A DNA stretch of 64,000 nucleotides from Halothiobacillaceae bacterium (GTDB lineage: Bacteria > Pseudomonadota > Gammaproteobacteria > Halothiobacillales > Halothiobacillaceae): positions 30,993-94,992 of the forward strand of contig JBNGDJ010000001.1 in NCBI GenBank assembly GCA_049974825.1. Reading direction: 5' to 3'. Each line of letters begins with the position of its first letter. Within the stretch, counting starts at the first letter, position 1. Both the position numbers and the translations under genes were made by a program. The notes under the pieces are model-generated. The model had not been told where the DNA came from. It did not search any database and saw only the letters and a program-made list of their open reading frames with translations. Positions 29,126 through 62,800 of the stretch are shown piece by piece.

Positions 29126-29185
29126 GGGAATCTCTGCACGAATGCTGAGATTTCCGATTGGGGCAGGGCATCGACGCCCTGCCCG
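29126..29185. repeat. Partial copy of the mosaic hairpin repeat (terminal and D modules)
   Basis: GGGAATCTCTGCACGAATGCTGAGATTTCC GATTGGGGCAGGGCATCGACGCCCTGCCC. Compare 60314-60365. Confidence 0.7.
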
Positions 29186-29247
29186 AAAGCGAATCTTGCT
29201 CGAAACGTCCACCTGCCTGATTTGGAAAAAGGGAGACTGACCGAATC

Positions 29248-30321
29248 ATGAAGCCATCAGCCATCGACCCGAACCGCCGCCGCTGCCTGCGCCTGCTGGC
29301 CGCGGCGCCGCTGCTGACCCTGGCCGGATGCGCCCGGGAACCCACTACATTCATCGAGGAAGGGTTCACGGTCTTCCACGCACCGGTCCTGCTGAAATTC
29401 GCCAATGTCGAACCCGGCGCGGCGCAAGCCGTGCTGAGCGAGGCCGAGGCCTACATGCAGCCGTTCTACCAACGCATCCATCCCTGGAAAGACAGCGACC
29501 TGACCCGGCTCAACGCCCGGCTGAAGGCGGGCGAGACGGTCCAGGTCGACGAGGAGATGCTCGGGCTGCTGCGCGAAGGCAAGCGCCTGAGCCAGATGAC
29601 GGACGGCGTGTTCGACCCGGCTGCCGGGGAGCTTTTCGCGAAGTGGGGCTTTCACTCCAATCACCCGGAACGCGATCGCAAGCCGCCACCGGAAAGTTGG
29701 CTGGCAGCCTGGCGCGCCGACGTGCCGCGGATGGATGACCTGGTCATCGAGGGCGACCGCGTGCGCAGCACCAACCCGCGCCTGCAGCTTGATCTCAACG
29801 CCATGGCCGAAGGCATGGCCGCACGTCACGTACTCGCCCGTGCCACGGCCGTGGGCGTGAACAACATGATCTTCGATCCAGGCGGAGACCTCGGCGTACT
29901 TGGCCGCGCCGGCGATCGTCCCTGGTCGCTGGGCATCCGCGATCCTTTTGGCAGCCACGGCCAGACCCTGGCGGGAATCATGCTTGAGGGACGCTGGGGG
30001 CTGTTCAGTTCCGGCACCTACGAAAAGCGCTTTCGCATTGATGGCAAGGACTACAGCCACCTGCTGAATCCGACCACTGGCTGGCCGGCCAGGGAGATCG
30101 TCGGCAGCACGGTGCTGCATGCCGACCCGGTAGTGGCAGACGCTGCGGCGACCGCCCTGACCATTATCGGGCCACAGCAAGCCGTACCCACGGCCCAGCG
30201 GCTCGGGCTGAGCGGCTTCGCCATGGTGGATGTGGACCGGCACCTGTATCTGAGCGCGAGCTGGGCCGACCGGCTGAAGCTCGTTGACAAAAATCTGCCG
30301 GTCACCGTGCTGACCTCATGA
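29248..30321 (+). CDS. apbE: ApbE-family FAD:protein FMN transferase, lipoprotein
   Basis: Signal/lipobox LLTLAGC, plus ApbE-like strings [34 protein letters not shown] and [12 protein letters not shown]. Confidence 0.8.
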
Positions 30322-31109
30322 ATCCGGGCACCGGGGTGCGCCGATGGCTCGGCGCCCATCGCCGCCTGCTGCCGGCCCTCGGCATTGCCCTGGGCCTGCA
30401 CCTCGCCTTTCTGGCGCTGAAGCCGGACCCCCCCCCTCGGCCCGAGCAGGGCCCGACCATCCAGATGGTGTTTTCCGGCCCCGAAAGCCAGGGCGATCTG
30501 CTGATGGCCGGCCCCGACGCCGACCCAACCGAACTGCCGACGCCGGAACCCGCACCGGAACCCGCACCGGAACCCGTACCGGAACCCGAGCCGGAACCCC
30601 AGCCGGAACCGGAACCCGCGCCGGAACCCGAGCCAGATCGCCCCCTGGCCCTGCGCGGCCAGGGGGCGGAAATATCCCGGGAAGCGCGTCTGCGACAGGA
30701 AATCGAAGCCGGCAAGGCCCAGATCGAAGCAGCCGAACGCACGCTGTACATGCAGAGGCGCCCCAAGGACGGAGTCATTGACGTGCAGCGCGCCTTCTAC
30801 CTGGAGGCCTGGCGACGCCAGGTCGAGACGGAAGGGACGCGGAACTTCCCCCCGGCAGTGGCCGAGCAGGGCCTTTCAGGCGGGCCTTTGCTCGAAATCA
30901 CCCTGCTCCCGGACGGCCAAATCGCCCCGGGCGGCATTGTGATTCTGCAGTCCACGGGTCAAGCCGCGCTCGACGAGGCGGCACGCGAAACCGTCCGCCG
31001 GGCCGCACCCTTCCCGCCGTTTCCGGACGCGATACGGGATCGCTACGACCGCATGGTCATTGTCCGCCGGATTGCCTTCGAGAGCGGGAGCACCCGACTG
31101 ACGGACTGA
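30318..31109 (+). CDS. tonB: TonB-family energy transducer
   Basis: N-terminal TM, a (P-E/A-P)n spacer ([34 protein letters not shown]) and a TonB C-terminal domain ([15 protein letters not shown] ... [27 protein letters not shown]). The ATG overlaps the apbE stop. Confidence 0.8.
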
Positions 31110-31370
31110 CAGGGCGAGCCAGGATCAATGACCGCCAGCTGGCCGCTGGAGGACTTCACCGAAACCCGTCATAAATCCATCCCTGGCTTTATGCAGGAAC
31201 GCCCGGTCAGATCCATGCGCGCACTCCGTCCCTTGCGGCCCGGCGGGCGCGCTCATATACTGCCGGGCCACGGTCGGCAGCCGGGCCTCAATCCGCGCGC
31301 CGGCCCGACGGGTGCGGTGACGGACCCCGTCCCCCCTTCTTCCCGAGCATCTCGAAGGTTACCGAAAACT

Positions 31371-31787
31371 ATGGCCGTGACACTTCCCGAAGGATACAAG
31401 CCCTCTGAAGACGAGGAATACATGAATCCCACGCAGCTGGAGTACTTCCGGCAAAAGCTGCTGGCCTGGAAGAAGGAGCTGGCGGAAGAAGCCGACGCCA
31501 CCATCACGCATCTGCGCGAGGAAAACTGGCAGGAGCCGGACATCAACGACCGGGCCACCCTGGAGTCCGACGCTTCGCTGGAACTGCGCACGCGGGACCG
31601 CTACCGCAAGCTCATCAACAAGATCGACAAGGCCCTTCGCCGGATCGACGACGGCAGCTACGGCTACTGCGAGGAAACCGGCGACGAGATCGGCATCCGC
31701 CGGCTTGAGGCTCGTCCGATCGCCACGCTCAGCATTGAAGCGCAGGAACGCCACGAGCGGCTTGAACGGGTCCAGCGGGATGACTGA
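31371..31787 (+). CDS. dksA: RNA polymerase-binding protein DksA, variant without the Cys4 zinc finger
   Basis: From ATG 31371: [37 protein letters not shown] ... [11 protein letters not shown] ... [29 protein letters not shown]. The ORF-track start at 31128 is an upstream extension. Confidence 0.85.
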
Positions 31788-32409
31788 CGCAGCGACACGC
31801 GCTCGCGGTCCTGTCCAAAGTGGCGCCGGCCTTGGCTGGCTTTTCGGCCTGATGCTGCTCGTGCTGGGTGGGCCGGTCCTTGGCGACGAGGCACCGCGTG
31901 TTGCCTTGGAGACTTCCGAAGGGCGGATCGTGCTGGCGCTCGACCCCGAGCGTGCGCCGGCGACGGTGGAAAACTTCCTGCGCTACGTGGACGACGGCCA
32001 CTATGACGGCACCATCTTCCACCGGGTAATTGCCGGATTCATGATCCAGGGCGGCGGATTTGACGAGTCCTTCGAGCAAAAACCCACCCGGGAGCCGGTT
32101 CGCAACGAGGCCGACAACGGCTTGGGCAACGACCGCGGCACCATCGCCATGGCGCGCACCATGGACCCGCAGTCTGCCACGGCCCAGTTCTTCATCAACG
32201 TAGTGGACAACGACTTTCTGAACTTCACTGCCCCCACCCCGCGTGGCTACGGCTACGCCGTGTTTGGCCGGGTCGTCGAGGGCATGGACGTCGTCGACCG
32301 GATTGCCGCCACTGCCACCGGCGCAGGCGGCCCCTTCCCTTCCGACGTTCCGCGAGAAACGGTTCTAATCGAACACGCAGAACGCCTGGCCGTGCCCGCC
32401 GATGAATGA
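31780..32409 (+). CDS. ppiA: Cyclophilin-type peptidyl-prolyl isomerase with signal peptide
   Basis: [34 protein letters not shown] ... [22 protein letters not shown]. The N-terminal hydrophobic segment is [18 protein letters not shown] 31780 overlaps the end of dksA. Confidence 0.85.
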
Positions 32410-34213: not shown

Positions 34214-34237
34214 CTCCCGCATAACCCTTGCGCGAGG

Positions 34238-35077: not shown

Positions 35078-35221
35078 TTTTGTACCACCATGGCAGAGTC
35101 GTCGTTGCATGTCAGGATATCCGGCAGCAAGGATGAACCAGGCGCACCCAAGTCTTCTTTGTTGGCATCAGAATGCCCGTTTCACCCACCCAGGTCGAGA
35201 GCAGGGCACCTCGAAAGCGTT

Positions 35222-35390
35222 CGTGCAGAGATTCCCTTAGGAATCTCTGCACGAAGCCATCCATGGCTTCACGCAGACACGCCCGGGCCGATACACGCTC
35301 GGCCCAGGCTCCGCAATTCAATGGCTTGCGCCATTGCGCGGCAGGGCATCCGTGCCCTGCACAGGAAGGTCTGCATTCGTGCAGACCTTC
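35222..35390 (+). repeat. Mosaic hairpin repeat, forward orientation
   Basis: GTGCAGAGATTCC-CTTA-GGAATCTCTGCAC, CGAAGCCATCCATGGCTTC, GCCCGGGCCGATACACGCTCGGCCCAGGC, CCGCAATTCAATGGCTTGCGCCATTGCGCGG, CAGGGCATCCGTGCCCTG and GAAGGTCTGCATTCGTGCAGACCTTC. It aligns with the copies at 40.7, 51.3, 56.0 and 60.1-60.5 kb. Confidence 0.9.
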
Positions 35391-35468
35391 TCTTAAGAAC
35401 TCGTCGCAGGAAGCAAACCCCTCATGATATAATTTTATACAGGACTTGAGCAAAAATATGACAACCCC

Positions 35469-36572
35469 ATGTATATTGCCCCCCTGTCCACCGAGGAACT
35501 GCTTTCTCGCCTGAAGGATGCCTCTGAACCCGCCCAGCATGGCTGGATGCTGTGGGTAGCCGAGGGCAGCGTCGAGTGCCTGCCGAAGTTTCTCGACGGC
35601 TGTCGCAACGCCGGGCTCAAAGTGTGCGGCGGGGTCTTTCCGGGCGTGATCGACAAGCACCGGGTGCGCCGGGAAGGGCTCGTGGCGCATCCCCTGCCGG
35701 CAGGCAGCACCGTAACGGTGGCCGATGTCCGCTTCGGCCAAGTCTTCTGGAGCAAGCCCCTGCCCCCGGCAGACCATAGGCCCGCAACAGCCATGATTTT
35801 GGTGGACTGCCAAGCCTCGGGCATTACGGCGCTGCTTGAACAGACTTTTGACCACTTCGGCAACCGGGTCGGGTATATCGGCGCCGGAAGCGGGTACACC
35901 GACCTGGCCCGCAGGCCGTCAATCTTTACCGATCAGGGCCTGCTTGAGGGCGCCGGCCTTCTGATTCACATCCCCCGCCAGCTCAGCACCGGCGTGCGCC
36001 ACGGCTGGCAACGCCTGGATGGCCCTTTCGTGGCTTCCGACACCCGCGGCAACCTGATTCGGGAGCTTGACTGGCGTCCCGCCGCCGAGGTCTACCGCGA
36101 GGCGGTCCTGCGGCACGCCCCGGAACTGGCTGGCAAGCCCCTGTTTCCCCACCAGGTCGCTGCCTTTCCGCTGGTGATCGCTAAGGAGGGCGAGGAAGAC
36201 ATCGTGCGGGATCCGGTCATCCAGACCCGGGCCGGGGAACTGCAAGTCCTGTCAGACGTGCCCCAGCACTCCCTGATGTTTCTGGCACAGGCTGACCGGG
36301 CCCGTCTGATCGCCGCCTCTCTGGAATCGGCGGAGGCCGTGGCAACAACCCGGAATGGTGCGCTCGGCTGGGTGATCGAATGCTATTCGCGGACCATCAA
36401 CCTCGGCCCGGACATCGAGCATGAGCTGGGCGCCGTGCACGCGGTGCTGACTCGCAAGGCCGGGGTGCCGGTCACCGGCGTGCTGGCCCTGGGCGAGATT
36501 TCCTCCGACGGACGCCATCCGCCGGAGTTTTACAACAAAACTTTCGTCAGTGCCGTGCTCCATGAGCAGTGA
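35469..36572 (+). CDS. FIST-domain sensory protein (367 aa)
   Basis: Size and pattern match FIST_N/FIST_C proteins (VCGGVFPGVI, GYIGAGSG, GPFVASDTRGNLIRELDWRPAAEVY, FPLVIAKEG, ECYSRTINLG, GVLALGEISS). The stop overlaps the downstream ATG. Confidence 0.65.
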   Translation: MYIAPLSTEELLSRLKDASEPAQHGWMLWVAEGSVECLPKFLDGCRNAGLKVCGGVFPGVIDKHRVRREGLVAHPLPAGSTVTVADVRFGQVFWSKPLPPADHRPATAMILVDCQASGITALLEQTFDHFGNRVGYIGAGSGYTDLARRPSIFTDQGLLEGAGLLIHIPRQLSTGVRHGWQRLDGPFVASDTRGNLIRELDWRPAAEVYREAVLRHAPELAGKPLFPHQVAAFPLVIAKEGEEDIVRDPVIQTRAGELQVLSDVPQHSLMFLAQADRARLIAASLESAEAVATTRNGALGWVIECYSRTINLGPDIEHELGAVHAVLTRKAGVPVTGVLALGEISSDGRHPPEFYNKTFVSAVLHEQ

Positions 36573-39500
36573 ACACGACACCACCCGCCAGCTGCTGGAG
36601 CTCTATGAGCATGCGCTTGCCATCGGATCCAGCCTGGATGCACGGCAAACCGCCCGCAACTTCCTGACATCCTTTGTCAAACGGCAGCAGCTGCCGGGCG
36701 GCGCCATCTGGTGGCGGGAGCCGAAGACCGCCGACGGCCAACCCGAACGCCTGATCCTGCTGGACGCCTTTCCCCGGAACATGGCCCCGGCTGAACACCT
36801 GGATCTGCCACACGCGCTCTGGACGCGGGCGCAGGCAGGGCGGGACAGTCTGGCTGTCCTGCCTGCCGACGAGGCCTGGCCGGATCGGCGCCCGACCAGC
36901 GAATATCCCTGGCTGGCGATCCTGACGCTTGGGCGACACGGCCTGCTGACGCTTGCCATGAACCAGGAAAACCAGGTGACCGAGACGCAGGTCCGGCGTT
37001 GGCAAGCCCTGCGCGACAAGCTGGCAGTGGCGCTGGAAGGGGCCCGGGCGCACGAGGCGCTCGCCGCCAGCGAGCGGACCATGACAGAATCCAACCAGCA
37101 GCTACAGAAGGCCCGGGACACGCTGGAGCTCTATGCCGGCGAGCTGGCGCATACCGAAAGGCGCCTGCGCCGGATCATGGACAACCTGCCTTCGATGTTG
37201 TGGGTCAAGCACCGGGACGGGCGCTACATCCTGGCCAACAATGTCTTTCAGAGCCTGCTGGGTATCACGGAGGCGGCGCTGTTCAATCGCCGGGACAGCG
37301 AGCTTTTCCCGATCGAACTGGCCCGAGTGCTGGGGCACGGCGAACGCGAGGCACTGAAAACGGGCGAGGCGACGCACGAAACGCTGTCCGTCTCCCTGCC
37401 CGGGCAGGAAACCGCCCGCATGCTCGAGATGACCTGGGTTCCGCTGGTCGGCTCGAACGGGGAAATCGGCAGTCTGCTCGGTGTAGCCAATGACGTCACA
37501 GAGCATCTTCAACTCGCACGCAGCCTGCGCGAGAGCGAACGCAGACTGAGCCAGCTTGCCCGGACCGTGGATGTCGCCTTCTGGCTGCGAACGCCTGATC
37601 GCATCCTGTATGTGAACCCCGCTTACGCGACCATCTGGGGCGAGACGACCCGCAGCCTGATTCGCCAGCCCGACCAGTTTCTGGCCGCCGTGCTGCCCGA
37701 CGACCGGGAGCGGGTAGCTGATGCCGTAACCCGCCTTCGACGCAACCGGGAAAACTTCGACGAGACCTTCCGAATCCGGCGTCCTGATGGCCAGATCCGT
37801 TGGGTTCACGCTCGCGCCCAGCCAGTGGGGGAAACCCAGGGTGAACTGCTGACCGCCGGCACGGCCTCGGATATCACCCGCGAGAAACAAACCGAACAGC
37901 GGCTGAGAGCGCAGACCGAACAGCTTCAGACGCTGTTTGACGTGATCCCAGTGGGTATCACCCTGGTCAACGAGCGATCCGAGATCATCGACTGCAACGC
38001 GGCGGCAGAGAAAATCCTGGGCCTGAGCAAGGCCGAACACACCCAGCGACGAATCATCGAGGCAGACTGGACGCTGATGCGCCCGGATGGCAGCCCGATG
38101 CCTGCCGAGGAAATCCCGGCCATTCGCGCGATGCAAACGGGCCGGCCGGTTCAGGATGTCGAGATGCTGCTGGACACGCCGCGGGGTCGGGTTTTTCTGT
38201 CGGTCAATGCCACTCCGGTGGAAAACCAGCACTTCCGGGTTTTGGTTTCCTACGTGGACATCACGAGTCGGCGCCGCGACGAACAGCGCCTGCGCATGGC
38301 GGCCAGCGTGTTCTCACACGCCCGGGAGGGAATCCTGATTACCCTGCCGGACAGCACCATTGTGGATGCAAACCAGGCCTTCGAACAGATCACAGGCTAC
38401 AGCCGAGACGAAGTGATCGGCCGCACGCCGGCCCTTCTGCAGTCCGGCTACCAGGGCGATGAATTCTATGCCGGCATGTGGCGCCAGCTTGTCGAGGACG
38501 GCTACTGGCACGGCGAAATCCGCAACCGCAAGAAAGACGGCGAGGTATACCTCGAATCGCTGACCATCAGCGCGGTCAACGATGAGCGGGGCGAGGTGCA
38601 GCACTATGTCGCGCTGTTCTCCGATATCACGCTGCAGCGCCATCTGCAGGAAGAGCGGATTCACAATGCGGCCCACTACGATCCGCTGACGGGCCTGGCC
38701 AACCGAAGCCTGCTGGATGACCGGCTGCACCAGGCGATCGTTCAGGCCCGGCGCAACGGGCAGGAACTGATGGTCGCCCACCTGGACATCGACAAGTTCA
38801 GCCGCCTGAACGAAATCCACGGCCACGACGCCGGTGACGCGATCCTGCTCGAAGTCGCCCGGCGGGTGCAATCGGTGATGCGCGAGACCGACACGCTGGC
38901 CCGCCTGGGCGGCGATGACCTGATTCTGGTACTGGGCGGACTGGGCAGCCTGCTGGATGGCCAGCAGGTGGTCGACCGTGCCCTGAACGAAATCGAGAAG
39001 CCCGTCGAGATCGGGGAACTGAGTCTGCAGGTCACGGCCAGCGTCGGCATTGCCACCTATCCGCAGGACCAGGATGCCAGCGACGCCGACCAGCTGCTGC
39101 GACAGGCGGACCAGGCCATGTACGAGGCCAAGCTGGACCCGACCAAGCGGTATCACGTGTTCGATGTGGCGCACGACCAGGTAGTCCGCAGCCACCAGGA
39201 GCTGCTGGCACGGCTGGGCCAGGCCCTGGAGAACAATGAACTGCGCCTGCACTACCAGCCCAAGGTCAACATGCGCAGCGGCGAGATCATCGGTGTCGAG
39301 TCGCTGATCCGCTGGCAACATCCGGACCGAGGCCTGCTCGGGCCGGCCGCTTTCATTCCCTCGATCGAGAATCACCCGCTGGACGAGGCCATCGGGGACT
39401 GGGTGATCCGCCGCGGGCTGGAGCAGTTGCTGATCTGGCACGAAACCGGGCTGGACCTGTCGCTCAGCGTCAATGTCTCCACGCGGCAGCTCCAGTCGCC

Positions 39501-40305
39501 GGACTTTGCGCTACGACTGGGCAGGATTCTTGAGGAATACCCGCAATGGTGCCGAAGCCGGCTGGAAATCGAGGTACTCGAATCCGGGGTCATGCTCGAC
39601 ATTCAGAACGCGGCCGAGGTCATGAAGCGCTGCGATGCCCTGGGTGTGCGATTCGCCCTGGACGACTTCGGCACCGGGTACTCGTCTTTGACCTACCTCA
39701 AGCGACTGCCGGCGAAGATCGTCAAGATCGACCAGAGCTTCGTTCGTCACGTGGAAGACGACCCCTCCGACGTGGCGATTCTCGAAACCATCGTGCATCT
39801 GAGCGAGGCATTTTCACGCACCCTGATCGCCGAAGGGGTCGAAGAAGCGCTGCACGGGCAAATCCTGCTGATGCTCGGCTGCGAGTGCGCCCAGGGTTAC
39901 GGCATTGCGCGTCCGATGGATGCGGCCCGGTTCCCCGAATGGGCGCGCAGCTGGTCCGTACCTGCCGTCTGGCGTGACGTCCCCTGCCTGAGCCGGGATC
40001 GAGCCCCGTTGTTGCGCGGCTGGATCGCCCTGCGGCGCTGGCAACGCCAAACCGCGCACGCCCTGGCCGAGGGAGGCAAGCGGCCCACGGTTGCCGGGCT
40101 GGCCCGCGCCCTGACGGACTTGCAGGCGCATCTGGTGTTTCTGGAAGATCGTGCACCCCTGGATGCAATCATCAGTCGGATCGGTGCGTTGCTCGACCAG
40201 CCACAGGATGGTGGTGCGGGAACTCTGGCTCTGCAACAGTCCATCAGCGAGCAGGTTGGCGCACTGTGCGACGCCCTGTTCCAGCGGTTGTTGCGGGCAG
40301 GATAG
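36562..40305 (+). CDS. GAF + 4 PAS + GGDEF (GGDDL) + EAL signalling protein with C-terminal extension
   Basis: ATG 36562 (or GTG 36550). GAF-like N-domain. PAS segments include MDNLPSMLWVKHRDGRYILANNVF, VDVAFWLRTPDRILYVNPAY, FDVIPVGITLVNERSEIIDCN and FSHAREGILITLPDSTIVDANQAF. The GGDEF region reads RETD-TLARL-GGDDL. The EAL region reads EVLES and DDFGTGYSSLTYLKRLPAKIVKIDQSFV. About 120 aa follow the EAL domain. Confidence 0.8.
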   Translation: MSSEHDTTRQLLELYEHALAIGSSLDARQTARNFLTSFVKRQQLPGGAIWWREPKTADGQPERLILLDAFPRNMAPAEHLDLPHALWTRAQAGRDSLAVLPADEAWPDRRPTSEYPWLAILTLGRHGLLTLAMNQENQVTETQVRRWQALRDKLAVALEGARAHEALAASERTMTESNQQLQKARDTLELYAGELAHTERRLRRIMDNLPSMLWVKHRDGRYILANNVFQSLLGITEAALFNRRDSELFPIELARVLGHGEREALKTGEATHETLSVSLPGQETARMLEMTWVPLVGSNGEIGSLLGVANDVTEHLQLARSLRESERRLSQLARTVDVAFWLRTPDRILYVNPAYATIWGETTRSLIRQPDQFLAAVLPDDRERVADAVTRLRRNRENFDETFRIRRPDGQIRWVHARAQPVGETQGELLTAGTASDITREKQTEQRLRAQTEQLQTLFDVIPVGITLVNERSEIIDCNAAAEKILGLSKAEHTQRRIIEADWTLMRPDGSPMPAEEIPAIRAMQTGRPVQDVEMLLDTPRGRVFLSVNATPVENQHFRVLVSYVDITSRRRDEQRLRMAASVFSHAREGILITLPDSTIVDANQAFEQITGYSRDEVIGRTPALLQSGYQGDEFYAGMWRQLVEDGYWHGEIRNRKKDGEVYLESLTISAVNDERGEVQHYVALFSDITLQRHLQEERIHNAAHYDPLTGLANRSLLDDRLHQAIVQARRNGQELMVAHLDIDKFSRLNEIHGHDAGDAILLEVARRVQSVMRETDTLARLGGDDLILVLGGLGSLLDGQQVVDRALNEIEKPVEIGELSLQVTASVGIATYPQDQDASDADQLLRQADQAMYEAKLDPTKRYHVFDVAHDQVVRSHQELLARLGQALENNELRLHYQPKVNMRSGEIIGVESLIRWQHPDRGLLGPAAFIPSIENHPLDEAIGDWVIRRGLEQLLIWHETGLDLSLSVNVSTRQLQSPDFALRLGRILEEYPQWCRSRLEIEVLESGVMLDIQNAAEVMKRCDALGVRFALDDFGTGYSSLTYLKRLPAKIVKIDQSFVRHVEDDPSDVAILETIVHLSEAFSRTLIAEGVEEALHGQILLMLGCECAQGYGIARPMDAARFPEWARSWSVPAVWRDVPCLSRDRAPLLRGWIALRRWQRQTAHALAEGGKRPTVAGLARALTDLQAHLVFLEDRAPLDAIISRIGALLDQPQDGGAGTLALQQSISEQVGALCDALFQRLLRAG

Positions 40306-40637
40306 CCACGGCTGCCTCGCCCGTTGCCGCGCCGCCCCGGACCTGTGCTAGAATCGCGACCTTGATGCAACGGGCAGCCATTGGCGCCCCATTCCACCCC
40401 AGGCACGATGCACGCAGCGATCAGTCCACCTTAGCGCCCCTACCTGCCGGTCACGGGCAGCACCGCCCGACCCATCTTGGCCGTCGCCCGGAGCACTGCG
40501 CGCGCCCGGCGAGCGGCGCCGCAATCCGCGGCAGTCATCAGGCGGAAAATCTTCCGCTTCATCATAAGCCCCTCGCCATTGGCCCCGGACCGCACAGCCG
40601 GCATCAACGCCGACCCCGAGCCCGGCTCACGTCCGTT

Positions 40638-40962
40638 GGGGAAACGCTGCACAAATCCATCCATGGATTTGTCGGCTGACGACAGCTGTAAGGAAACTCT
40701 GCACGAAGCCATCCATGGCTTCATGCAGACACACCCGGGCCGATACATGCTCGGCCCGGGCTCCGCAATTCAATGGCTTACGCCATTGAGCGTTGGGGCA
40801 TCCATGCCCCAATCGGGAATCTCTGCATTCGTGCAGAGATTCCCTAACGCGTCAGATGGCGTTCACACCCAGGCCATGCTCCGCAATTCAATGGCTTGCG
40901 CCATTATGCGGCAGGGCGTCCGAGACCGGCACGGGAAGGTCTGCATTCGTGCAGACCTTCCT
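40638..40962 (+). repeat. Composite of about 1.7 mosaic repeat units, forward orientation
   Basis: It contains module A twice (CTGCACAAATCCATCCATGGATTTGT; CTGCACGAAGCCATCCATGGCTTCATGCAG). It also carries GCCCGGGCCGATACATGCTCGGCCCGGGC and CCGCAATTCAATGGCTT[AG]CGCCATT twice. GGGGCATCCATGCCCC, GGGAATCTCTGCATTCGTGCAGAGATTCCC and GAAGGTCTGCATTCGTGCAGACCTTC are present as well. Confidence 0.9.
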
Positions 40963-41010
40963 TGGGGAAAGAACACGATCAACGACCGAACATTCCGACA
41001 GAGAGTAGAA

Positions 41011-42507
41011 ATGAACTGGTATCGATACCGACAGGAGTGGTTTTCCAATATCCGGGGCGACACGCTGTCCGGCCTGGTGGTGGCCCTGGCACTGATCCCG
41101 GAGGCCATCGCTTTCTCGATCATCGCCGGGTTGGACCCCAAGGTGGGCCTCTACGCCTCGGTCGCCATTGCCATCATGATTGCCTTCACCGGGGCTCGTC
41201 CCGGGATGATCTCCGCGGCCACGGCGGCCACGGCCCTGCTCATGGTCACCCTGGTGGCCGATCACGGACTGGAATACCTGCTGGCAGCCACGATTTTGGC
41301 CGGGGTGCTCCAGATCGTGGCCGGCTACATTCGGCTGGACCGGCTGATGCGATTCATTTCCAACTCGGTCATGACCGGCTTCGTGAATGCGCTCGCTATC
41401 CTGATCTTCATGGCGCAGCTTCCCGAGCTGACCGGCGTCACCTGGCATGTCTACGCGCTGGTCGCGCTGGGGCTGGCGATCATCTACCTGTTCCCCTACC
41501 TGACCAAGTCCGTGCCCTCCCCTCTGGTGACCATCGTGGTGCTGACGCTGATCGCCTGGCTGATCGACCTGGACGTGCGCACCGTCAGTGACATGGGCGA
41601 GCTGCCGGATACCCTGCCGGTCTTCCTGCTGCCGGACATTCCGCTGAATCTCGAAACACTGATGATCATCCTGCCCTACTCGGCCGCCATTGCCGCCGTG
41701 GGCCTGATCGAATCCCTGATGACCCAGAACCTGCTGGACGACATGACCGACACGCGCACCAGCAAGGCACAGGAGTGCAAGGGGCAGGGCATTTCCAACA
41801 TCACTGCCGGCTGCTTTGGCGGGATGGCGGGCTGCGCGATGGTCGGCCAGTCGGTAATCAACATCAAGTCCGGCGGGCGGGGCCGGCTCTCGGCCTTTCT
41901 CGCCGGTGTTTTTTTGCTGATCCTGGTGGTGTTCCTTGAGCCGCTGATTGCCGTCGTGCCCATGGCCGCCTTGGTCGCCGTGATGATCATGGTGTCCATC
42001 GGGACCTTCAGCTGGAGCTCGATCCGGGACCTGAAGAAACACCCGCTCAGCACCAATGTGGTGATGGTCATGACGGTGATCGTCACGGTTGCCACCCACA
42101 ACCTGGCCTACGGCGTGCTGACCGGCGTGCTCCTGGCAGCCATGTTCTTCGCCAACAAGATCGGGCAGTACATGGTCGTGCGTTCCGATCGTGACGAGCA
42201 TCCCGCCCAGGAAGGCCATCAGCGCCGCTACGAAGTCATCGGCCAGGTATTCTTTGCCTCCACCGAGAAATTCATGGCGTCCTTTGACTACAAGGAAGAC
42301 TTGGATAAGGTCATTATCGACCTGTCCAAGGCGCATTTCTGGGACATCACTGCGGTGACAGCGCTCGACAAGGTCGTGATCAACTTCCGGCGGGAGGGGA
42401 TCGAGGTGATTGTCGAGGGCATGAACGAAGCCACGGCCACCATCGTCGACAAGCACGCGGTGCACGACAAGCCCGACGCCGCAGAAAAACTCATGGGCGG
42501 CCACTGA
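41011..42507 (+). CDS. SulP-family anion transporter with C-terminal STAS domain
   Basis: From ATG 41011: [50 protein letters not shown] is the SulP signature region. Multiple TMs follow. The STAS-like end reads [15 protein letters not shown] ... [16 protein letters not shown]. The ORF-track start at 40477 reads through the repeat. Confidence 0.85.
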
Positions 42508-46545: not shown

Positions 46546-46605
46546 GTTTTATCACTCCTGAAATAACCCGCCGGACCGACCAACCCGGTCGCTGCCTGAG
46601 CGTGG

Positions 46606-46810
46606 AAGGGAACCCCTGCACGATTGCCTCAGATTCCCCATTGGGGCAGGGATGCCCCGACGCACAATGGCAAAAGCCATTGAATTTCGCAGCCCGGGTC
46701 GCACCTGTTCCGCCCCGGGCGTGACTGAGCGCGGGTTTCGCCAACTGACGCGTTTAACCGGCGCCAGCCCGCAAAGCCTTGGATGGCCTTGTGCAGCGTG
46801 TCCAGAGGGA
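46606..46810 (-). repeat. Mosaic hairpin repeat, reverse orientation, diverged
   Basis: GGGAACCCCTGCACGATTGCCTCAGATTCCCC, GGGGCAGGGATGCCCC, CACAATGGCAAAAGCCATTGAATTTCG, GCCCGGGTCGCACCTGTTCCGCCCCGGGC, GCCAACTGACGCGTTTAACCGGCG and GCAAAGCCTTGGATGGCCTTGTGCAG. The module order mirrors the forward copies. Confidence 0.8.
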
Positions 46811-47106
46811 ACCACCCCGGCCGAATGCCGTCCACGGATTGCCACTGGATTCCGGAAAGCATGCCAGGGCCGGTCAATGTGACCGCTAGTGTACTATAAG
46901 GAAGGCTCGCGGAAAGGCGGCCCTTCCCGCACAGGGCTTCGGACGCGTTGCCCCAAGACACCGCAACTCATTGATTCTCATCGCACGAGCAGGGTATGCA
47001 CCGAGCCATGCCTTGCCACGCCGAGCCCGGGGTGGCGTTCCGCAGCACCGATACCTTGCCGCCCCCTGAGACATGCAACACCAATCACGCAGGACACCGC
47101 GCTCGC

Positions 47107-49985: not shown

Positions 49986-50113
49986 AGGAAGCTCTGCACA
50001 AAGCCATCCCTGGCTTTGTGAGCTTGCGCCAGCTAAATGCGTAAGCTGGCGGAGCCAGCGTTCGCGCCCGGGACATGCTCGGCAATTCAATGGCTTGCGC
50101 CATTGTGCGGCAG
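49986..50113 (+). repeat. Mosaic hairpin repeat, forward, truncated after module C
   Basis: GGAAGCTCTGCACAAAGCCATCCCTGGCTTTGTG, GCGCCAGCTAAATGCGTAAGCTGGCG and GGCAATTCAATGGCTTGCGCCATTGTGCGG. It fills the convergent uvrA/bioF gap and ends 2 nt before the bioF stop codon. Confidence 0.85.
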
Positions 50114-50115
50114 GA

Positions 50116-51333: not shown

Positions 51334-51509
51334 GGGAATCTCTGTACAAGGCCATCCTTGGCTTTGTGGGCTGGCGCCAGCTTAACGCGTCAGCTGGCGG
51401 AACCCGCGTTCACGCCCGGACCATGCTCCGCAATTCAATGGCTTGCGCCATTGTGCGGCAGGGCATCCATGCCCTGCACGGGAAGGTCTGCATTCGTGCA
51501 GACCTTCCT
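51334..51509 (+). repeat. Mosaic hairpin repeat, forward, near full length
   Basis: GGGAATCTCTGTACAAGGCCATCCTTGGCTTTGTG, GCGCCAGCTTAACGCGTCAGCTGGCG, CCGCAATTCAATGGCTTGCGCCATTGTGCGG, CAGGGCATCCATGCCCTG and GGAAGGTCTGCATTCGTGCAGACCTTCC. Confidence 0.9.
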
Positions 51510-51538
51510 TTGAAAACTCTCCACTAAGTACGCCGATT

Positions 51539-53488
51539 ATGCGCCTGCCGGTCAATATCTTTCTCTGGACGCTCACGGCCACCCTGCTGCCGGTACTGGC
51601 GCTGGTCTGGGGGGTCACGGACTACAGTCAGCAGCGCTTCCAGGAAGAAGTCGACCGCGAAGCCCACGACAACGTCTCGGCCATTGTGGTCGAGCTGGAA
51701 AACCGGCTGCGGTATGAACAAGAAGTGCTCGGCGGCATTGCACGGGCACCGGCCACGCAGTCGATGCTCCAGGCACTTGAAGCCTCAGCCCAGGGCTTCC
51801 GCCATCCGGAAATGACTTCGCTGCGCATCCGGCTCAATGCCTTTCTGGCCGAGCTGCAGCGAAGCATCCCTGGCCTGGGTTCTCTGCGCGTGATGGACTC
51901 GGGCGGCAATACCGTTGCCAAGACCACCCTTGGCCGGGTCTCGCCGCCGATATTCGACAGCCTGGGGACCATCAGCTATGTCGAGGAGGAACTGGACGAC
52001 CAGGCGCTGGTGGACCTGCTGGATGCCCTGCCCTCCGGCGAGGTCAGCTACCTTCTGCTGCCGCCCTCGCGCTGGGAGCTCAGCACCGGCCAGGTGCCCA
52101 CCATGCACTATGCGGTGCTGCCCCTGGAGGATGGCGCCGAAAAGCGTGTCGGCTATGTTGTGCTGAACACCTTCGGGGAGTTTTTGGACCGCATCCTGAT
52201 GATGACCCCGAAAACCCGCGGCGGCACCATGCTGATTGCCGAGCATGGCAGCCTGATCGACGAGCGCGAGGGACTGGTTCTCTACGACGACCTCGGCGGG
52301 CAGCAGTTTGCCGCGCCGCTGGCGCCGGGCAGCCGCCAGTACGCCCAGCAGATTGACGACGGCCGCTTCTGGTCGGATGTGCGGCGCAACAGCAACGGGA
52401 TCTATCCGACCGAGGACGGCAAGTACCGCATTTACTACCAGCTTTACCACCCTTATCCAAACAGCCTCACGGGCTGGGTGGTCGCCTTGCGCCTGCCGGC
52501 ACAGACCGTCAGCGCCCCCTACACGGACATCCGCAACAGCCTGTACGTCTACGCACTGCTGGCGCTGCTGATCAGCCTGATGCTGGCGGGGCTGGGCGCG
52601 CGCTATTTTTCGCGTCCCATCGTGCGCCTGGGCGAGGCGCTGAAAGCCTATGCGGACGGGCGACGCGCCTTTCGCCTGCAGTCCCGGTCGCAAACCCATG
52701 AGCTGCGCGAGCTTGAACAGGCTTTCGATTACATGGCGCAGCGACTCGACGAGGAAGAGCGGCGCCGGCAGAGCGCGGAACGCCGGGCCCTGCAGCAGGC
52801 GAAACTGGCCAGCGTGGGGGAAATGGCCGCCGGGATCGGTCACGAGATCAACAATCCGCTGAACAACGTGCTGTCGCTCACGCGCCTGATCGACCGCCAG
52901 CTGCCGGAAGACGCCGAAACCCTGCGCCAGGACGTGCAGGCGCTGCGTGAAGAAGCGCTCCGGGTTTCCCAGATCGTCCGGGGCGTGATGAACTTTGCCC
53001 GGCAACTGCCACCGGCCCACGAATCCATTCGGCTTGGCGACTGGCTGACGGCAGTGCTCGAAAGGCTGCACCCCGAGGCCATGGAAGCAGATGTCTGGCT
53101 TGAGGCCGAGCCCTTCGACCCGAACTGCAGCCTGGAAGCCGACTCCGGCCAGATCGAGCAAGTGCTGACCAACCTGATTCGAAACGCGCTGCAGGCCACG
53201 CCGCCTGAAGGGCGGGTCACCGTCCGCGCGCACTGCAGCGAAACCACCTTCGATTGCGTGATCATCGACGAGGGTGACGGAATCCCGGAGGAGAACCTCA
53301 GACGGATCTACGACCCATTCTTCACCACCAAGGATGTCAATGGCGGGACGGGGCTGGGCCTTTCGATCAGCCTGGGAATCGTTCACTATCACGGCGGAAC
53401 GCTGGAGGTAATGAACCGGTCGGAAGGCGAAGGCACGGTGGCGAGGCTTTCCCTGCCGCGTCGCCGTTCGCCGCCGCGGTTCAACTGA
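51539..53488 (+). CDS. Sensor histidine kinase (large periplasmic sensor, HAMP, HisKA, HATPase)
   Basis: From ATG 51539: MRLPVNIFLWTLTATLLPVLALVW, then an extracytoplasmic region of about 330 aa and a second TM (LYVYALLALLISLMLAGLGA). The H-box is GEMAAGIGHEINNPLN. The N, G1 and G2 boxes are LTNLIRNALQA, DEGDGI and GTGLGLSI. The ORF-track start at 51443 reads through the repeat. Confidence 0.85.
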   Translation: MRLPVNIFLWTLTATLLPVLALVWGVTDYSQQRFQEEVDREAHDNVSAIVVELENRLRYEQEVLGGIARAPATQSMLQALEASAQGFRHPEMTSLRIRLNAFLAELQRSIPGLGSLRVMDSGGNTVAKTTLGRVSPPIFDSLGTISYVEEELDDQALVDLLDALPSGEVSYLLLPPSRWELSTGQVPTMHYAVLPLEDGAEKRVGYVVLNTFGEFLDRILMMTPKTRGGTMLIAEHGSLIDEREGLVLYDDLGGQQFAAPLAPGSRQYAQQIDDGRFWSDVRRNSNGIYPTEDGKYRIYYQLYHPYPNSLTGWVVALRLPAQTVSAPYTDIRNSLYVYALLALLISLMLAGLGARYFSRPIVRLGEALKAYADGRRAFRLQSRSQTHELRELEQAFDYMAQRLDEEERRRQSAERRALQQAKLASVGEMAAGIGHEINNPLNNVLSLTRLIDRQLPEDAETLRQDVQALREEALRVSQIVRGVMNFARQLPPAHESIRLGDWLTAVLERLHPEAMEADVWLEAEPFDPNCSLEADSGQIEQVLTNLIRNALQATPPEGRVTVRAHCSETTFDCVIIDEGDGIPEENLRRIYDPFFTTKDVNGGTGLGLSISLGIVHYHGGTLEVMNRSEGEGTVARLSLPRRRSPPRFN

Positions 53489-53489: not shown

Positions 53490-53528
53490 GGAAACCCTGC
53501 ACAAGACCATCCGTGACATGATGCAGGG
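53490..53528. repeat. Solitary diverged module A of the mosaic repeat between kinase and regulator genes
   Basis: GGAAACCCTGCACAAGACCATCCGTGACATGATGCAGGG. Compare GGAAACTCTGCACGAAGCCATCCATGGCTTCATGCAG at 40692. The CCCTGCA/TGCAGGG stem is retained. Confidence 0.6.
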
Positions 53529-55995: not shown

Positions 55996-56030
55996 GAAAA
56001 ACCCGCAGCCTTTGCTGCGGTTTTTTTTTC
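55996..56030 (+). terminator. Rho-independent terminator after soxZ
   Basis: GAAAAA-CCGCAGC-CTTT-GCTGCGG-TTTTTTTTT: 7-bp GC-rich stem, 4-nt loop, T9 tail. The upstream A-run would allow bidirectional function. Confidence 0.85.
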
Positions 56031-56035
56031 GTTAC

Positions 56036-56180
56036 GGAAGCGCTGCACAAATCCATCCATGGATTTATGCAGACACGCCCGGGCCAATACATGCTCGGCC
56101 CGGGCTCCGCAATTCAATGGTTTGCGCCATTGTGCGGCAAGACATCCGAGACCGGCACGAGAAGGTCTGCACCTCGAAAG
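56036..56180 (+). repeat. Mosaic hairpin repeat, forward
   Basis: GGAAGCGCTGCACAAATCCATCCATGGATTTATGCAG, GCCCGGGCCAATACATGCTCGGCCCGGGC, CCGCAATTCAATGGTTTGCGCCATTGTGCGG and GAAGGTCTGCAC. Confidence 0.9.
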
Positions 56181-59618: not shown

Positions 59619-59999
59619 TCAGGACGAGTCCACCCCGCTGACCTGGGGATTCGTAGCCTCCCAATGGACCGCCAGCCAGACGGTTTGCCTGTCGGGGGCG
59701 GTCCATTCCACCCGATGACGACAGTGCGCGGGCAGGTCCACCCAGTCACCGGGACCCAGCTCGACGGTGCGCGCCGGCCGCTCGAAGCGCAGTCGTGCCG
59801 ACCCTTGGACCAGCAGAACCCACTCGTGCTGCGGCTGGTCGTACCACTGCCCCTCGGGCGTGGCCTGGCCGCGAGAGACAATCCGCTCAATATTGAACCC
59901 CGGCGCGGAGCGGATTGTCTCGAACACCTCGTCCGGGGCTTCATCCGGCAGATGGCGTAACAAATTTCCCCATTTCGGGGATGTCTCAAGAGCGTTCAC
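59619..59999 (-). CDS. Small cupin-domain protein
   Basis: GNLLRHLPDEAPDEVFETIRSAPGFNIERIVSRGQATPEGQWYDQPQHEWVLLVQGSARL ... GDWVDLPAHCRHRVEW. GTG 59999 was chosen because GGAGGT lies 6 nt upstream. The ORF-track start is 60101. Confidence 0.7.
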   Translation of the reverse strand: MNALETSPKWGNLLRHLPDEAPDEVFETIRSAPGFNIERIVSRGQATPEGQWYDQPQHEWVLLVQGSARLRFERPARTVELGPGDWVDLPAHCRHRVEWTAPDRQTVWLAVHWEATNPQVSGVDSS

Positions 60000-60116
60000 G
60001 AAGCACCTCCAGCGAGCCTGCCATGACGTTTCCATTTTTTTGGGGAACCTCGAAAAACCCCGTCCATGAGTTTTTCGAGGCGCCCTTTCTCCGGGTCGCA
60101 TTGTTCATGATGCCTC

Positions 60117-60513
60117 AGGGATCTCTGCACGAATGCTTCAGATTCCCGCGCAGGGCATGGATGCCCTGCTGCACAATGGCGTAAGCCATTGAATTGCGGA
60201 GCCCGGGCCGAGCATGTATCGGCCCGGGCGTGTCTGAACGCGGGCTCCGCCAGCTGACGCGTTTAGCTGGCGTTAGCCCACGAAGCCATGGATGGCTTCG
60301 TGCAGAGTTTCCTCAGGGAATCTCTGCACGAATGCTTCAGATTCCCGATTGGGGCATGGATGCCCCAACGCTCAATGGCGCAAGCCATTGAATTGCGGAG
60401 CCCGGGCCGAGCATGTATCGGCCCGGGCGTCTCTGAACGCGGGCTCCGCCAGCTGGCGCGTTAAGCTGGCGCAAGCCCGCAAGTCCATGGATGGAGTTGT
60501 GCAGAGTTTCCCT
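60117..60513 (-). repeat. Tandem dimer of the full-length (about 200 bp) mosaic repeat, reverse orientation
   Basis: Unit 1 is 60117-60313 and unit 2 is 60314-60513. Each reads GGGA(A)TCTCTGCACGAATGCTTCAGATTCCC and then a GGGCATGGATGCCC module. CAATGGCG.AAGCCATTGAATTGCGG and GCCCGGGCCGAGCATGTATCGGCCCGGGC follow. The unit ends with GCCAGCTG.CGCGTT.AGCTGGCG and CCATGGATGG..T.GTGCAGAGTTTCC. Confidence 0.95.
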
Positions 60514-60616
60514 CACAGGGGGGCTGTCGCCGACCCATGACTTGAGCTCCTGCCCCGTCCGCCCTTCGATTGACCCCGCCCGCTGTCCCCGGCACCCTGC
60601 ATTCGAGAACCGCCGC

Positions 60617-61273
60617 ATGACGGGTTTTCGCACGCCTCGCGAACTGATGAATCACTGGCTGGAGCACCAACCTTTGTCGCACTATCCCGTTCCCGCCCGC
60701 TGCCTGGAACACGAGATCGAAGCGAAGAAAAGTCGCTTCATCGCTCGGGCCGGGCCAGCCACGAACCGGTCCGAGGCCATGGCCATGATCGACGGGGCGC
60801 GCCGGGATTATCCGGATGCCCGGCATCACTGCTGGGCCTTCTCGATCGGCCCGCCCCATTCGGCGGCGACGGCCGGCATGAGCGACGATGGCGAGCCATC
60901 GGGAACGGCCGGCAAGCCGATCATGAATGTCATCGAGCACCGGGGGATCGGAGACGTCGTGGTCGTGGTCAGCCGCTACTTCGGTGGCGTCAAGCTCGGG
61001 GCCGGCGGGCTGGTCCGGGCTTACTCGGCAGCCACAAGGGACGTGCTGGAGCGCTTGCCGCTAGTCGAGCGCCAACCGCTGTGTCACTACCGGGCATCAC
61101 TGGATTTCGCGCTGGAAGAATCGCTCCGGCGATGGGCCGATTCCCGGGATGTTCATATTCTGGACGTGGAGTACAGCGAACGGGTCTGCCTGGTCCTGGC
61201 GATCCCGCAATCTGCCGAGGCGGCGCTGAAATCCTTTGCCGCGGCCCGCAATATCGACCTGACCCGCGCATGA
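60617..61273 (+). CDS. yigZ: IMPACT/YigZ-family protein
   Basis: EIEAKKSRFIARAGPATNRSEAMAMIDGARRDYPDARHHCWAF ... MSDDGEPSGTAGKPIMNVIEH ... VVVSRYFGGVKLGAGGLVRAY. ATG 60617. The ORF-track start reads through the repeat. Confidence 0.85.
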   Translation: MTGFRTPRELMNHWLEHQPLSHYPVPARCLEHEIEAKKSRFIARAGPATNRSEAMAMIDGARRDYPDARHHCWAFSIGPPHSAATAGMSDDGEPSGTAGKPIMNVIEHRGIGDVVVVVSRYFGGVKLGAGGLVRAYSAATRDVLERLPLVERQPLCHYRASLDFALEESLRRWADSRDVHILDVEYSERVCLVLAIPQSAEAALKSFAAARNIDLTRA

Positions 61274-61327
61274 GCCACCGACTCGGCCTGCTATGATGAG
61301 GCCCCACCCAACGAAAGAACGGCCCAG

Positions 61328-61978
61328 ATGAACGAAATCGACCATCGCGCAACCCGCCGGGACTACGTCTACGGAAAACTGCAGCGGGAAGACCTGTCCG
61401 AGAACCCCACCGAGCAGCTGACCCGCTGGCTGCTGGATGCCGAGTCGGCAGGCAATTTCGACGCGACCGCGATGTGTCTGTCGACGGCCACGGCCGACGG
61501 ACGGCCCTCGGCCCGGTATGTTCTGCTCAAGCATTACGACGATGCCGGCCTGTGCTGGTACAGCGATGCCCGCAGCCGCAAGGGCCAGGAGCTGGCCGAA
61601 AACCCCTGGGCGGCACTCACGTTCTACTGGCCGGAGAACGACCGGCAGGTCCGGATCAACGGGTCGGTGGAAGAGCTGCCCGAGTCCATGGCCGAGCAGT
61701 ATTTCAAGCAGCGCCCCCTCGGTTCGCGGCTCGCCGCCGCGGCATCTGAGCAGTCGCACCCGATTGCGGACCGGGCCGCGCTGGAGCAGCGCTACCAGGA
61801 CGTGCAGGCCCGGTACCCCGATGGCGACGTGCCGCGCAATCCGGCCTGGCGGGGCTACCGGCTGACCCCGGAGTCCTGGGAGTTTTGGCAGGGCCGGGAA
61901 AGTCGGCTGCACGACCGGTTCCTGTACCTGCGGGAAATGGAAACCGGGCAATGGCGCATTCAGCGCCTGATGCCCTGA
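61328..61978 (+). CDS. pdxH: Pyridoxamine 5-prime-phosphate oxidase
   Basis: TAMCLSTATADGRPSARYVLLKHYDDAGLCWYSDARSRKGQELAENPWAALTFYWPENDRQVRINGSVEEL ... WEFWQGRESRLHDRFLY. Confidence 0.95.
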   Translation: MNEIDHRATRRDYVYGKLQREDLSENPTEQLTRWLLDAESAGNFDATAMCLSTATADGRPSARYVLLKHYDDAGLCWYSDARSRKGQELAENPWAALTFYWPENDRQVRINGSVEELPESMAEQYFKQRPLGSRLAAAASEQSHPIADRAALEQRYQDVQARYPDGDVPRNPAWRGYRLTPESWEFWQGRESRLHDRFLYLREMETGQWRIQRLMP

Positions 61979-62023
61979 GAGCATGCCTGCACGAATGCAT
62001 GACGGCCGTTTTCAGAAAACATC

Positions 62024-62710
62024 ATGAACGACGACCGCATTCGACTTGAGCCGGGCTGGAAGGCGGTGCTGCGCGAGACACTGCTGTCCGAGCCGCTTCA
62101 GGCTCTGCGCGCCCGCCTGGCGGCAGAACGCGCGGCGGGCAAGCGGATCCACCCGGAACCGAACGAGTGGTTCAATGCTTTCCAGCACGCGCCGCTGGAC
62201 CAGGTGAAGGTGGTCATCCTCGGGCAGGATCCCTATCCCACCCCGGGCCATGCGCACGGGCTCTGCTTCTCGGTCCGGCCCGAAGTGCAGCCCCTGCCCA
62301 AGTCGCTGCAGAACATCTTCCGGGAGCTTGCCGACGACACCGGCATCGTCAATCACTGTGGCAGCCTGATGCACTGGGCCGACCAGGGGGTGCTCCTGCT
62401 CAACGCGGTGCTGACCGTCGAGTCGGGCAAGTCCGCCAGCCATCAGGGCTGGGGCTGGGAGCGGCTCACCGACCGGGCGGTGCAGGTGCTCGACGAGCAG
62501 CCGCGCCCGCTGGCCTTCGTCCTCTGGGGCGCACAGGCCCAGAAGAAAGGCGCCCACATCGACCGCAGCCGGCACCTGGTGCTGGCCGCGCCGCACCCTT
62601 CGCCCCTCTCGGCCCACCGGGGATTCTTCGGCAGCCGTCCCTTCTCGAAGATCAACCAGTTCCTCGAAGCCCAGGGCCAGTCACCGATCGACTGGCGCAC
62701 CGAGCCTTAG
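62024..62710 (+). CDS. ung: Uracil-DNA glycosylase
   Basis: KVVILGQDPYPTPGHAHGLCFSV, LLLNAVLTVE and LAAPHPSPLSAHRGFFGSRPFS are family 1 UDG motifs. Confidence 0.95.
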   Translation: MNDDRIRLEPGWKAVLRETLLSEPLQALRARLAAERAAGKRIHPEPNEWFNAFQHAPLDQVKVVILGQDPYPTPGHAHGLCFSVRPEVQPLPKSLQNIFRELADDTGIVNHCGSLMHWADQGVLLLNAVLTVESGKSASHQGWGWERLTDRAVQVLDEQPRPLAFVLWGAQAQKKGAHIDRSRHLVLAAPHPSPLSAHRGFFGSRPFSKINQFLEAQGQSPIDWRTEP

Positions 62711-62711
62711 A

Positions 62712-62800
62712 AAATCCCTCCACAAATGCTTCAGATTCCCGCGCAGGGCATGATGCCCTGCCGCACAATGGGAAGCCGTTGAATTGCCGACCCGGGGCGC
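62712..62800 (-). repeat. Partial mosaic repeat, reverse orientation
   Basis: AAATCCCTCCACAAATGCTTCAGATTCCC, CAGGGCATGATGCCCTG and CACAATGGGAAGCCGTTGAATTGCCG. Compare 60117-60200. Confidence 0.8.

Follow-up and report, generated by a model that had tools for sequence, protein, structure and literature searches.

The mosaic repeats that lie between genes in one stretch of the genome of an uncultured Halothiobacillaceae bacterium are very probably non-autonomous transposable elements of the miniature inverted-repeat kind (MITEs), 152-195 bp long, whose ends are recognised by a DDE transposase of the IS5 family and which are moved in trans by an insertion sequence (IS) that the same genome carries on its contig C206. 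The stretch, called the window here, covers 64,000 nucleotides (C1:30993-94992), and the genome that contains it (G000) has 2.63 Mb in 232 contigs, 63.7% G+C and a completeness of 99.6%. By every sequence-level criterion reviewed in PMC3184786, the repeat is a MITE. MITEs of the IS5 type are a well-known kind of bacterial mobile DNA, and in the present family the internal chain of hairpins is unusually well kept. The family gives a clear view, across a bacterial family, of a MITE, of the IS5-type element that partners it and of how the ends of the two co-evolve. Beyond the textbook picture are only the strand-symmetric pairing of the hairpins and the wandering of one of them, module M2.

Copy number, termini and target sites

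Repeats were located by self-comparison of the window and by a profile hidden Markov model (HMM) built from full copies. The part of the window from 29 to 63 kb contains 13 copies, some full and some partial, and the HMM confirmed 11 loci, including a nested pair and a tandem pair. The family that the original prediction described, with copies in both orientations, is real and well above chance. It is also enriched over the whole genome at about 400 loci: the 445 HMM matches fall into 404 loci, which add up to 45.3 kb (1.7% of 2.63 Mb), and BLAST with the unit against the genome gave 440 segments in 392 clusters. A MITE copy is found at 124 of the 464 contig ends, so the fragmentation of the assembly is mainly due to this family. 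For annotation, this means that one MITE family accounts for that share of the genome, for about a quarter of the contig breaks and for several over-long open reading frame (ORF) calls, and it needs masking before intergenic motifs in the window are interpreted.

The anatomy of the element was derived from an alignment of 59 full copies with their flanks and from genome-wide pairing of termini. In 130 element-length terminus pairs, the MITE begins with GGAA[A/T/G][C/G]TCTGCAC and ends with GTGCAGA[G/C][A/C]TTCC; the two ends are inverted copies of each other, as had been predicted. The copies fall into discrete size classes, one of 152 bp (with 36 copies of precisely that length), one of 173-175 bp and one of 194-195 bp, which differ by whole hairpin modules, in agreement with the gain and loss of modules claimed before. 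The interior of the 195-bp form is a chain of hairpins, M1 to M6, with no transposase gene inside. Hairpin M1 reads CACAAATCCAT-CC-ATGGATTTGTG. M2 (GGGCTnnCGCCAGCT..AGCTGGCGnAGCCC, 43 nt) is absent from the 152-bp class, and M3 (GCCCGGGCCGA-TACATGC-TCGGCCCGGGC) is short in the 174-bp class. M4 and M5 read CAATGGC-TTGC-GCCATTG and GCAGGGCAT-CC-ATGCCCTGC, respectively. The terminal hairpin M6 consists of the end, TTCG and the inverted end (GGAAGGTCTGCA-TTCG-TGCAGACCTTCC), and the 12-nt end core is therefore present three times in each MITE. The terminal variant GGAAGGTCTGCA/TGCAGACCTTCC, which had been reported as a swapped module, is real and compensatory. The unit proposed as reference, 60314-60513, was correct to within 2-3 bases; its true ends are 60317 and 60511, and the extra G/C belongs to the flank. 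As single-stranded DNA, the unit 60317-60511 has a folding energy of -65.6 kcal/mol (z = -8.7).

A search for target site duplications (TSDs), recommended in the original prediction, was successful. The 4-bp flanks were identical in 42 of the 87 complete oriented copies and differed by one base in 13 more, and the control of mismatched left/right flank pairs gave 6% identical and 22% with a one-base difference. These counts take the element as GGAA...TTCC; other offsets or lengths scored lower. Perfect TSDs included CTAA (11 copies), TTAA (5 copies), CTCA, CTTG, CTAG, TTAG, CTTA, CTGA and others. Their consensus is YTNR, with strict YTAR in 20 of the 42. The target of IS5 is 5'-YTAR-3', with a 4-bp duplication (PMC5009759).

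One copy has been inserted into another in the window. The complete 152-bp copy at 40692-40843 (plus strand, flanks GTAA/CTAA) occupies the M2 hairpin loop of a host copy of about 166 bp at 40640-40961 (plus strand), both being detected by the HMM. Excising the nested copy together with one xTAA 4-mer gives back a sequence of the 175-bp class, GGCTGACGnCAGCT-CTAA-CGCGTCAG (joint CAGCT-CTAA-CGCG). About 15% of the complete copies adjoin another copy through a common 4-mer, for example at 35235/35240 and 60312/60317.

The window was also compared with G001, a congener in which genes share 78-86% identity with those of G000. The equivalent gaps at 29.13, 46.6 and 60.1-60.5 kb have no MITE copy in G001, where the ssb-uvrA gap is 140 bp, and those at 50.0, 51.3, 53.5 and 62.7 kb have MITE-like sequence, at 51.3 kb apparently in the opposite orientation. 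As intergenic DNA does not align between the two genomes, this is a comparison of presence and absence per gap and not of base-exact empty sites. Differences in insertion between species, named as a check in the original prediction, do exist, as does conservation of structure (see below).

All 87 complete copies are intergenic, which upholds the earlier claim that no copy interrupts a gene. Ten copies fall in longest-ORF calls, 17-485 nt from the putative start, and all of these calls are 5' over-extensions. In the window, homology to G001 starts only downstream of each copy. The longest-ORF starts of 40477-42507, 51443-53488 and 60491-61273 run back into MITE copies, and homology of these genes to G001 begins at about 40999, 51526 and 60683; the true gene starts thus lie downstream of the copies.

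The density of YTAR is 2.29 per kb in non-coding and 0.37 per kb in coding DNA, a 6.2-fold difference. As about 46% of all YTAR sites still lie in coding DNA, selection against insertion into genes must be invoked as well. A stop codon lies 0-1 nt before the start of ten of the 87 copies, and because YTAR always contains TAA or TAG, copies on stop codons are explained without a terminator role; the target itself is a simple reason for finding elements there. The observation that copies follow stop codons stood in this form, and the emphasis on convergent gaps did not: copies occupy 13 convergent, 13 divergent and 39 tandem gaps, against 275, 283 and 1292 such gaps overall, with no convergent preference. 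Their orientation relative to genes (24:15) has no significant bias. No T-run follows any hairpin, the MITE consensus also lacking one, and no copy contains any of the 19 terminator-like sites of the 46.4-62.9 kb region. The terminator function that had been proposed was therefore rejected.

The IS5-type insertion sequence on contig C206

Nine DDE_Tnp_1 matches, on short contigs, were found in G000, and a MITE terminus was found on C206 only. The original prediction saw no transposase or RAYT gene in the window. For RAYT this extends to the whole genome, and the cognate IS5 transposase lies outside the window, on C206. The minus-strand ORF 936-1889 of this contig encodes 317 amino acids; its score against the NCBIfam profile NF033581 ('IS5 family transposase', cut-off 140) was 329 bits, with an alignment over the full profile. 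The IS end at C206:799 reads ttaa followed by GGAATCTCTGCACGAATCGCC, and the first 17 bases of the IS, GGAATCTCTGCACGAAT, are identical to the MITE right end (17/17 nt). At the other side, C206 breaks 50 nt upstream of the transposase start codon. In complete relatives of the IS from sister genomes this upstream part measures 79 nt, including the repeat, and it is therefore most likely that the assembler broke C206 at the second, repeated IS end. This second end would also match the MITE ends, GGAA(A/T)CTCTGCAC. No contig overlapping C206 was found that would extend to it.

Related IS5-type ISs in sister genera (G009, G003 and G016) are 1168-1211 bp long, with ends GGAAnnTCTGnnC and the TSD TTAG or TTAA. 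The transposase shares only 51-54% identity with its best relatives on plasmids, which are annotated as IS5 family, so the IS of C206 is unnamed. The eight other DDE_Tnp_1 genes of G000 lie on contigs of 1.6-3.3 kb (C198-C213, C175) without a MITE terminus; one of them, on C212, is an IS5/IS427-type gene with DUF4096.

Homologous MITEs have a patchy distribution in the Halothiobacillaceae, occurring in four of five genera and 15 of 54 genomes (E <= 1e-8); 16 other families of the class yielded essentially none. In genera g1 and g4 the MITE ends are GGAAnCTCTGCAC; the g4 copies (G016, G022 and G007) share these ends, and their TSDs include CTTG, CTTA and CTAA. In the copies of g3 (G006 and G012) and of MAG009, the end-loop-end terminal hairpin and the interior are retained, and the ends differ, being GGAAnCTCTGAA or GGAAAyGCTGA. 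The IS5-type ISs of g3 end in GGAACCTCTGAAC, matching the g3 MITE ends. Since the MITE ends track the resident IS5 ends by genus, the ends of MITE and IS have co-evolved.

In the mechanism that we favour, the MITE would carry only the end sequences and the IS5-type IS of C206 would supply the transposase in trans. A staggered cut at a 4-bp YTAR-like target would lead to duplication of the target. With TAA or TAG in the target, a sixfold higher density of the target outside genes and selection against genic insertion, copies would come to lie between genes, often on stop codons and often beside or inside older copies. The size classes would arise by gain or loss of whole hairpins. From the matching end and its co-evolution with the MITE, we infer that the transposase of C206 itself moves the MITEs.

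Several observations weigh against this explanation. Only one IS end is assembled, and the transposase gene was found once; the congener G001, a metagenome-assembled genome that is 94% complete and rich in MITEs, yielded none. About half of the perfect TSDs are not strict YTAR (YTNR/YTNN). The MITE copies are 83-97% identical to the consensus and none is identical to it, which does not speak for current activity. There was no clean pair of filled and empty sites in G001, the nearest genome, in which genes are only about 80% identical and intergenic DNA is unaligned, and the seven metagenome contigs obtained through a conserved 26-mer of ssb are all 72-78% identical, lack the MITE and are too distant. 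Finally, the non-terminal hairpins are strongly conserved, which a simple cut-and-paste model does not require.

Like members of the IS5 group (E. coli IS5; NF033581 transpos_IS5_4 type), the MITE has ends beginning with GGAA, a 4-bp YTAR-like TSD and a bias to non-coding DNA, and the related ISs resemble the group in their length of about 1.2 kb and single transposase of about 320 amino acids. In E. coli IS5 itself, the TSD is YTAR-like and 4 bp long and insertion is biased to non-coding DNA (PMC5009759). Unlike IS5, the MITE has an interior unrelated to that of the IS (type II MITE) and a target relaxed to YTNR. MITEs derived from the IS5 family include BrickBuilt, MITE293 and MITE700 of P. 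gingivalis (ends of ISPg1/3/4/9) and ATR of Neisseria (ends of ISNme1) (PMC4596501). Like these, the present MITE is non-coding and multi-copy, contains no transposase remnant and has terminal inverted repeats (TIRs) identical or nearly identical to those of a resident IS5-family IS (PMC4596501). It differs from them in sequence and TIRs, which are unrelated (theirs GAGACCTTTGCA), and in copy number, which is 10-20 there and about 400 here; BrickBuilt carries a minisatellite whereas this MITE carries a hairpin chain. Like Correia elements (CREE/NEMIS), which are MITEs of about 100-160 bp with hundreds of copies and internal-deletion size variants, it is intergenic with a candidate core site for integration host factor (IHF); Correia elements are often co-transcribed (PMC3184786). 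Unlike them, it has a TIR core of 13-17 nt, a 4-bp YTNR TSD and a cognate IS, and it shares no sequence similarity with them. Correia elements have 26-bp TIRs, a TA duplication and no known transposase. No paper on repeats of the Halothiobacillaceae was found, no named family matches, and Rfam 15 gave 0 hits in the window (a dimer reached only chance level, E 0.1-0.4), so the match to a named family that would have counted against the original prediction did not come up.

Hairpin conservation and alternative explanations

Covariation was analysed in 47 aligned 152-bp copies from g1 and g4 with 41 predicted pairs. In this set 97% of the cells are paired, 19 of the 41 pairs have changed on both sides, and five hairpins are kept by compensatory changes. 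When the partners were slid by 1-3 columns as a control, 30-41% of the cells were paired and 2-8 pairs had double changes. The stems of M3 have been replaced nearly in full (GCCCGGG/CCCGGGC, GCACAAG/CTTGTGC, ACCCGTG/CACGGGT), with the loop TACAYGC kept, and loops and linkers in general are conserved between genera. Stem mismatches are 22 G.T and 22 A.C, and this equality indicates a strand-symmetric constraint. A constraint on pairing in DNA, through a hairpin or cruciform or through templated self-correction of a quasi-palindrome, would fit better than one on a one-strand RNA; we rejected a one-strand RNA structure on the equal mismatches and the lack of an Rfam match. Identity of the MITE consensus is 97% between G000 and G001 and about 86% between genera, far above that of the surrounding genomes, and may be due either to constraint or to horizontal spread.

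The position of M2 varies among MITE copies, this hairpin following M1 or lying within the loop of M3 (C3, C5, C9, C26, C131 and C146). In other genera M2 occurs outside any IS5-type frame, in other, unrelated nested-palindrome mosaics (L051, L069-L080; G006/G022/G019), and several genomes with M2 in this setting have no Y1 transposase, the class to which RAYT belongs. With the 43 nt of M2 at two positions inside the MITE and in mosaics of genomes without RAYT, it is conceivable, though rather doubtful, that the IS5-type frame is only a vehicle and that the interior hairpins are independently exchangeable modules, with conserved loops and co-varying stems in at least four genera, M2 being mobile alone. 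If this were true, there would be either an undescribed mechanism of hairpin insertion or a structural role, under selection, that the hairpins play in transposition or in the biology of the chromosome, and a MITE consensus identity of 97% at about 80% gene identity would reflect function or recent horizontal spread.

Besides whole MITEs, unique DNA of G000 contains about 40 solo 28-bp palindromes that consist of a MITE end, TTCG and the inverted end, for example at C5:7787-7814, C6:32235-32262 and C124:2702-2729. Perfect 4-bp TSDs flank 8 of 43 of these, against 2% in the control. The left arm is of the left-end type (GGAAAC) in 11 or more, a type rarely seen as the inner arm of intact terminal hairpins (6/127). 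The solo palindromes probably arose through loss of what lies between the terminal hairpin's inner arm and the left end, in the manner of a solo long terminal repeat. A separate 28-bp transposon is less fitting.

The conserved pairing could also mean that the repeat is a cis-acting RNA or DNA element selected by the host, such as a terminator, a stabiliser of mRNA 3' ends or a binding site for IHF or another nucleoid protein, and that its transposon-like ends are incidental. The compensatory changes across genera and the conserved loops and linkers speak for such an element. M4, the most conserved module, reads ATTCAATGGCTTR, with one mismatch to the IHF consensus (WATCAANNNNTTR), and it is perfect in the g3 copies. 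Both Correia elements and BIMEs carry IHF sites (PMC3184786). Against this, a perfect IHF consensus occurs in none of the 87 copies of G000, and M4 as a putative IHF site is a weak lead. The lack of T-runs and of terminator-like sites in copies, the absence of bias in orientation and gap type, the equal G.T and A.C mismatches without any one-strand RNA signature and the lack of an Rfam family all argue against selection by the host, and we regard this explanation as improbable.

Still less probable is that the repeats are repetitive extragenic palindromic (REP) sequences, either as bacterial interspersed mosaic elements (BIMEs) or as REPINs, whose spread would be due to a RAYT (Y1 HUH) transposase that works on single-stranded hairpins. 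Like BIMEs and REP clusters of E. coli and REPINs of Pseudomonas, the MITE is a GC-rich mosaic of extragenic palindromes with variable modules; it is strictly intergenic and highly folded, M2 is found outside the IS5-type frame in other genera, and Y1 transposases occur in 29 of the 54 genomes of the family. Unlike the MITE, BIMEs and REPINs depend on RAYT and lack TIRs and TSDs, and PF01797 (RAYT/Y1) had 0 matches in G000, G001, G022, G016 and G019. REP and REPIN elements mobilised by RAYT are not known to make a target duplication, and REP palindromes carry an adjacent conserved GTAG or CGTC tag. The copies described here have defined inverted termini that read GGAA.. and match those of a DDE IS, with 4-bp TSDs, which largely rules out the REP/BIME mechanism for the whole element. 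Of the earlier label "MITE/BIME-like", the MITE part, with inverted termini and modular hairpins, is retained. Least probable of all, although both ends lie in hairpins (the left end with M1 and the terminal hairpin M6), are palindrome-associated elements (PATEs) of the IS200/IS605 type moving as single-stranded DNA through subterminal hairpins, which are ruled out by IS5-type ends with 4-bp TSDs and by the absence of a TnpA (Y1) gene from G000, elements of that type not being known to have TIRs or to make a target duplication.

Copies and neighbouring genes in the window

Most of the copy positions listed in the original prediction were confirmed by the HMM. The copy at 53.5 kb is a 31-nt remnant at 53490-53520 (plus strand), with the left end (one mismatch in the terminus) and the first hairpin, and is below the HMM threshold; the fragments claimed at 7.3 kb, with 62% identity over 37 nt and no HMM hit, were discarded. 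The first copy in the window, at 29127-29184 (minus strand), is partial, with the 3'-terminal hairpins M6 and M5 (HMM model 142-194, E 4e-05) and the exact terminus GGAATCTCTGCAC. It begins 1 nt past the TAA stop of the upstream gene 28172-29125.

At 35215-35235 (plus strand) there is a 21-bp right-end fragment (..TTCGTGCAGAGATTCC), which abuts the next copy through a common CTTA. This next copy, at 35240-35391 (plus strand), is complete with 152 bp and without M2 (HMM E 5e-38), and has the perfect TSD CTTA/CTTA. Together with the nested pair, these copies flank on both sides (35215-40961) a FIST gene and a GAF-PAS-GGDEF-EAL gene (35469-40305). The syntenic place in G001, C47:4433-5469, has no FIST/GGDEF-EAL block and measures about 1 kb against about 6 kb. 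A composite transposon at 35.2-41.0 kb was considered and is unsupported, the outer 4-mers (CTTA and TTGG) being different. The difference in the block may possibly be due to MITE-mediated recombination or to a plain insertion or deletion.

The divergent gap between ssb and uvrA (46547-46995) is widened by two MITE copies. One, at 46609-46803 (minus strand), is a complete but diverged 195-bp copy (HMM E 1e-37) with a decayed TSD (GAAG/AGAG), and the other, at 46901-47013 (minus strand), is an old degenerate partial copy upstream of uvrA (HMM model 82-193, E 2e-07), which the original prediction did not list. The gap of the window and that of G001 (C47:10394-10534) contain a short conserved motif, CTAGTGTACTATA, possibly a regulatory box. 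The convergent gap that follows uvrA contains, at 49987-50115 (plus strand, HMM E 3e-29), the 5' 129 bp of a copy, from the left end to M4 and without the right end. A complete 174-bp copy with a short M3 follows at 51335-51508 (plus strand, HMM E 4e-49), with the perfect TSD TTTG/TTTG.

A copy of the 152-bp type at 56036-56172 (plus strand, HMM E 2e-28) is truncated in its terminal hairpin. Separate from it and 15 nt upstream, at 56003-56020, CCGCAGCCTTTGCTGCGG with T/A runs on either side makes up a canonical intrinsic terminator of the bidirectional type. Two complete 195-bp copies on the minus strand form a head-to-tail pair with 4 bp, CTGA, common to both: 60118-60312 (HMM E 2e-59), the downstream member in element orientation, and 60317-60511 (HMM E 4e-54), the reference unit. 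The last copy, at 62714-62801 (minus strand), is a degenerate 3' part (HMM model 101-191, E 2e-11) and begins just past the stop of gene 62024-62710.

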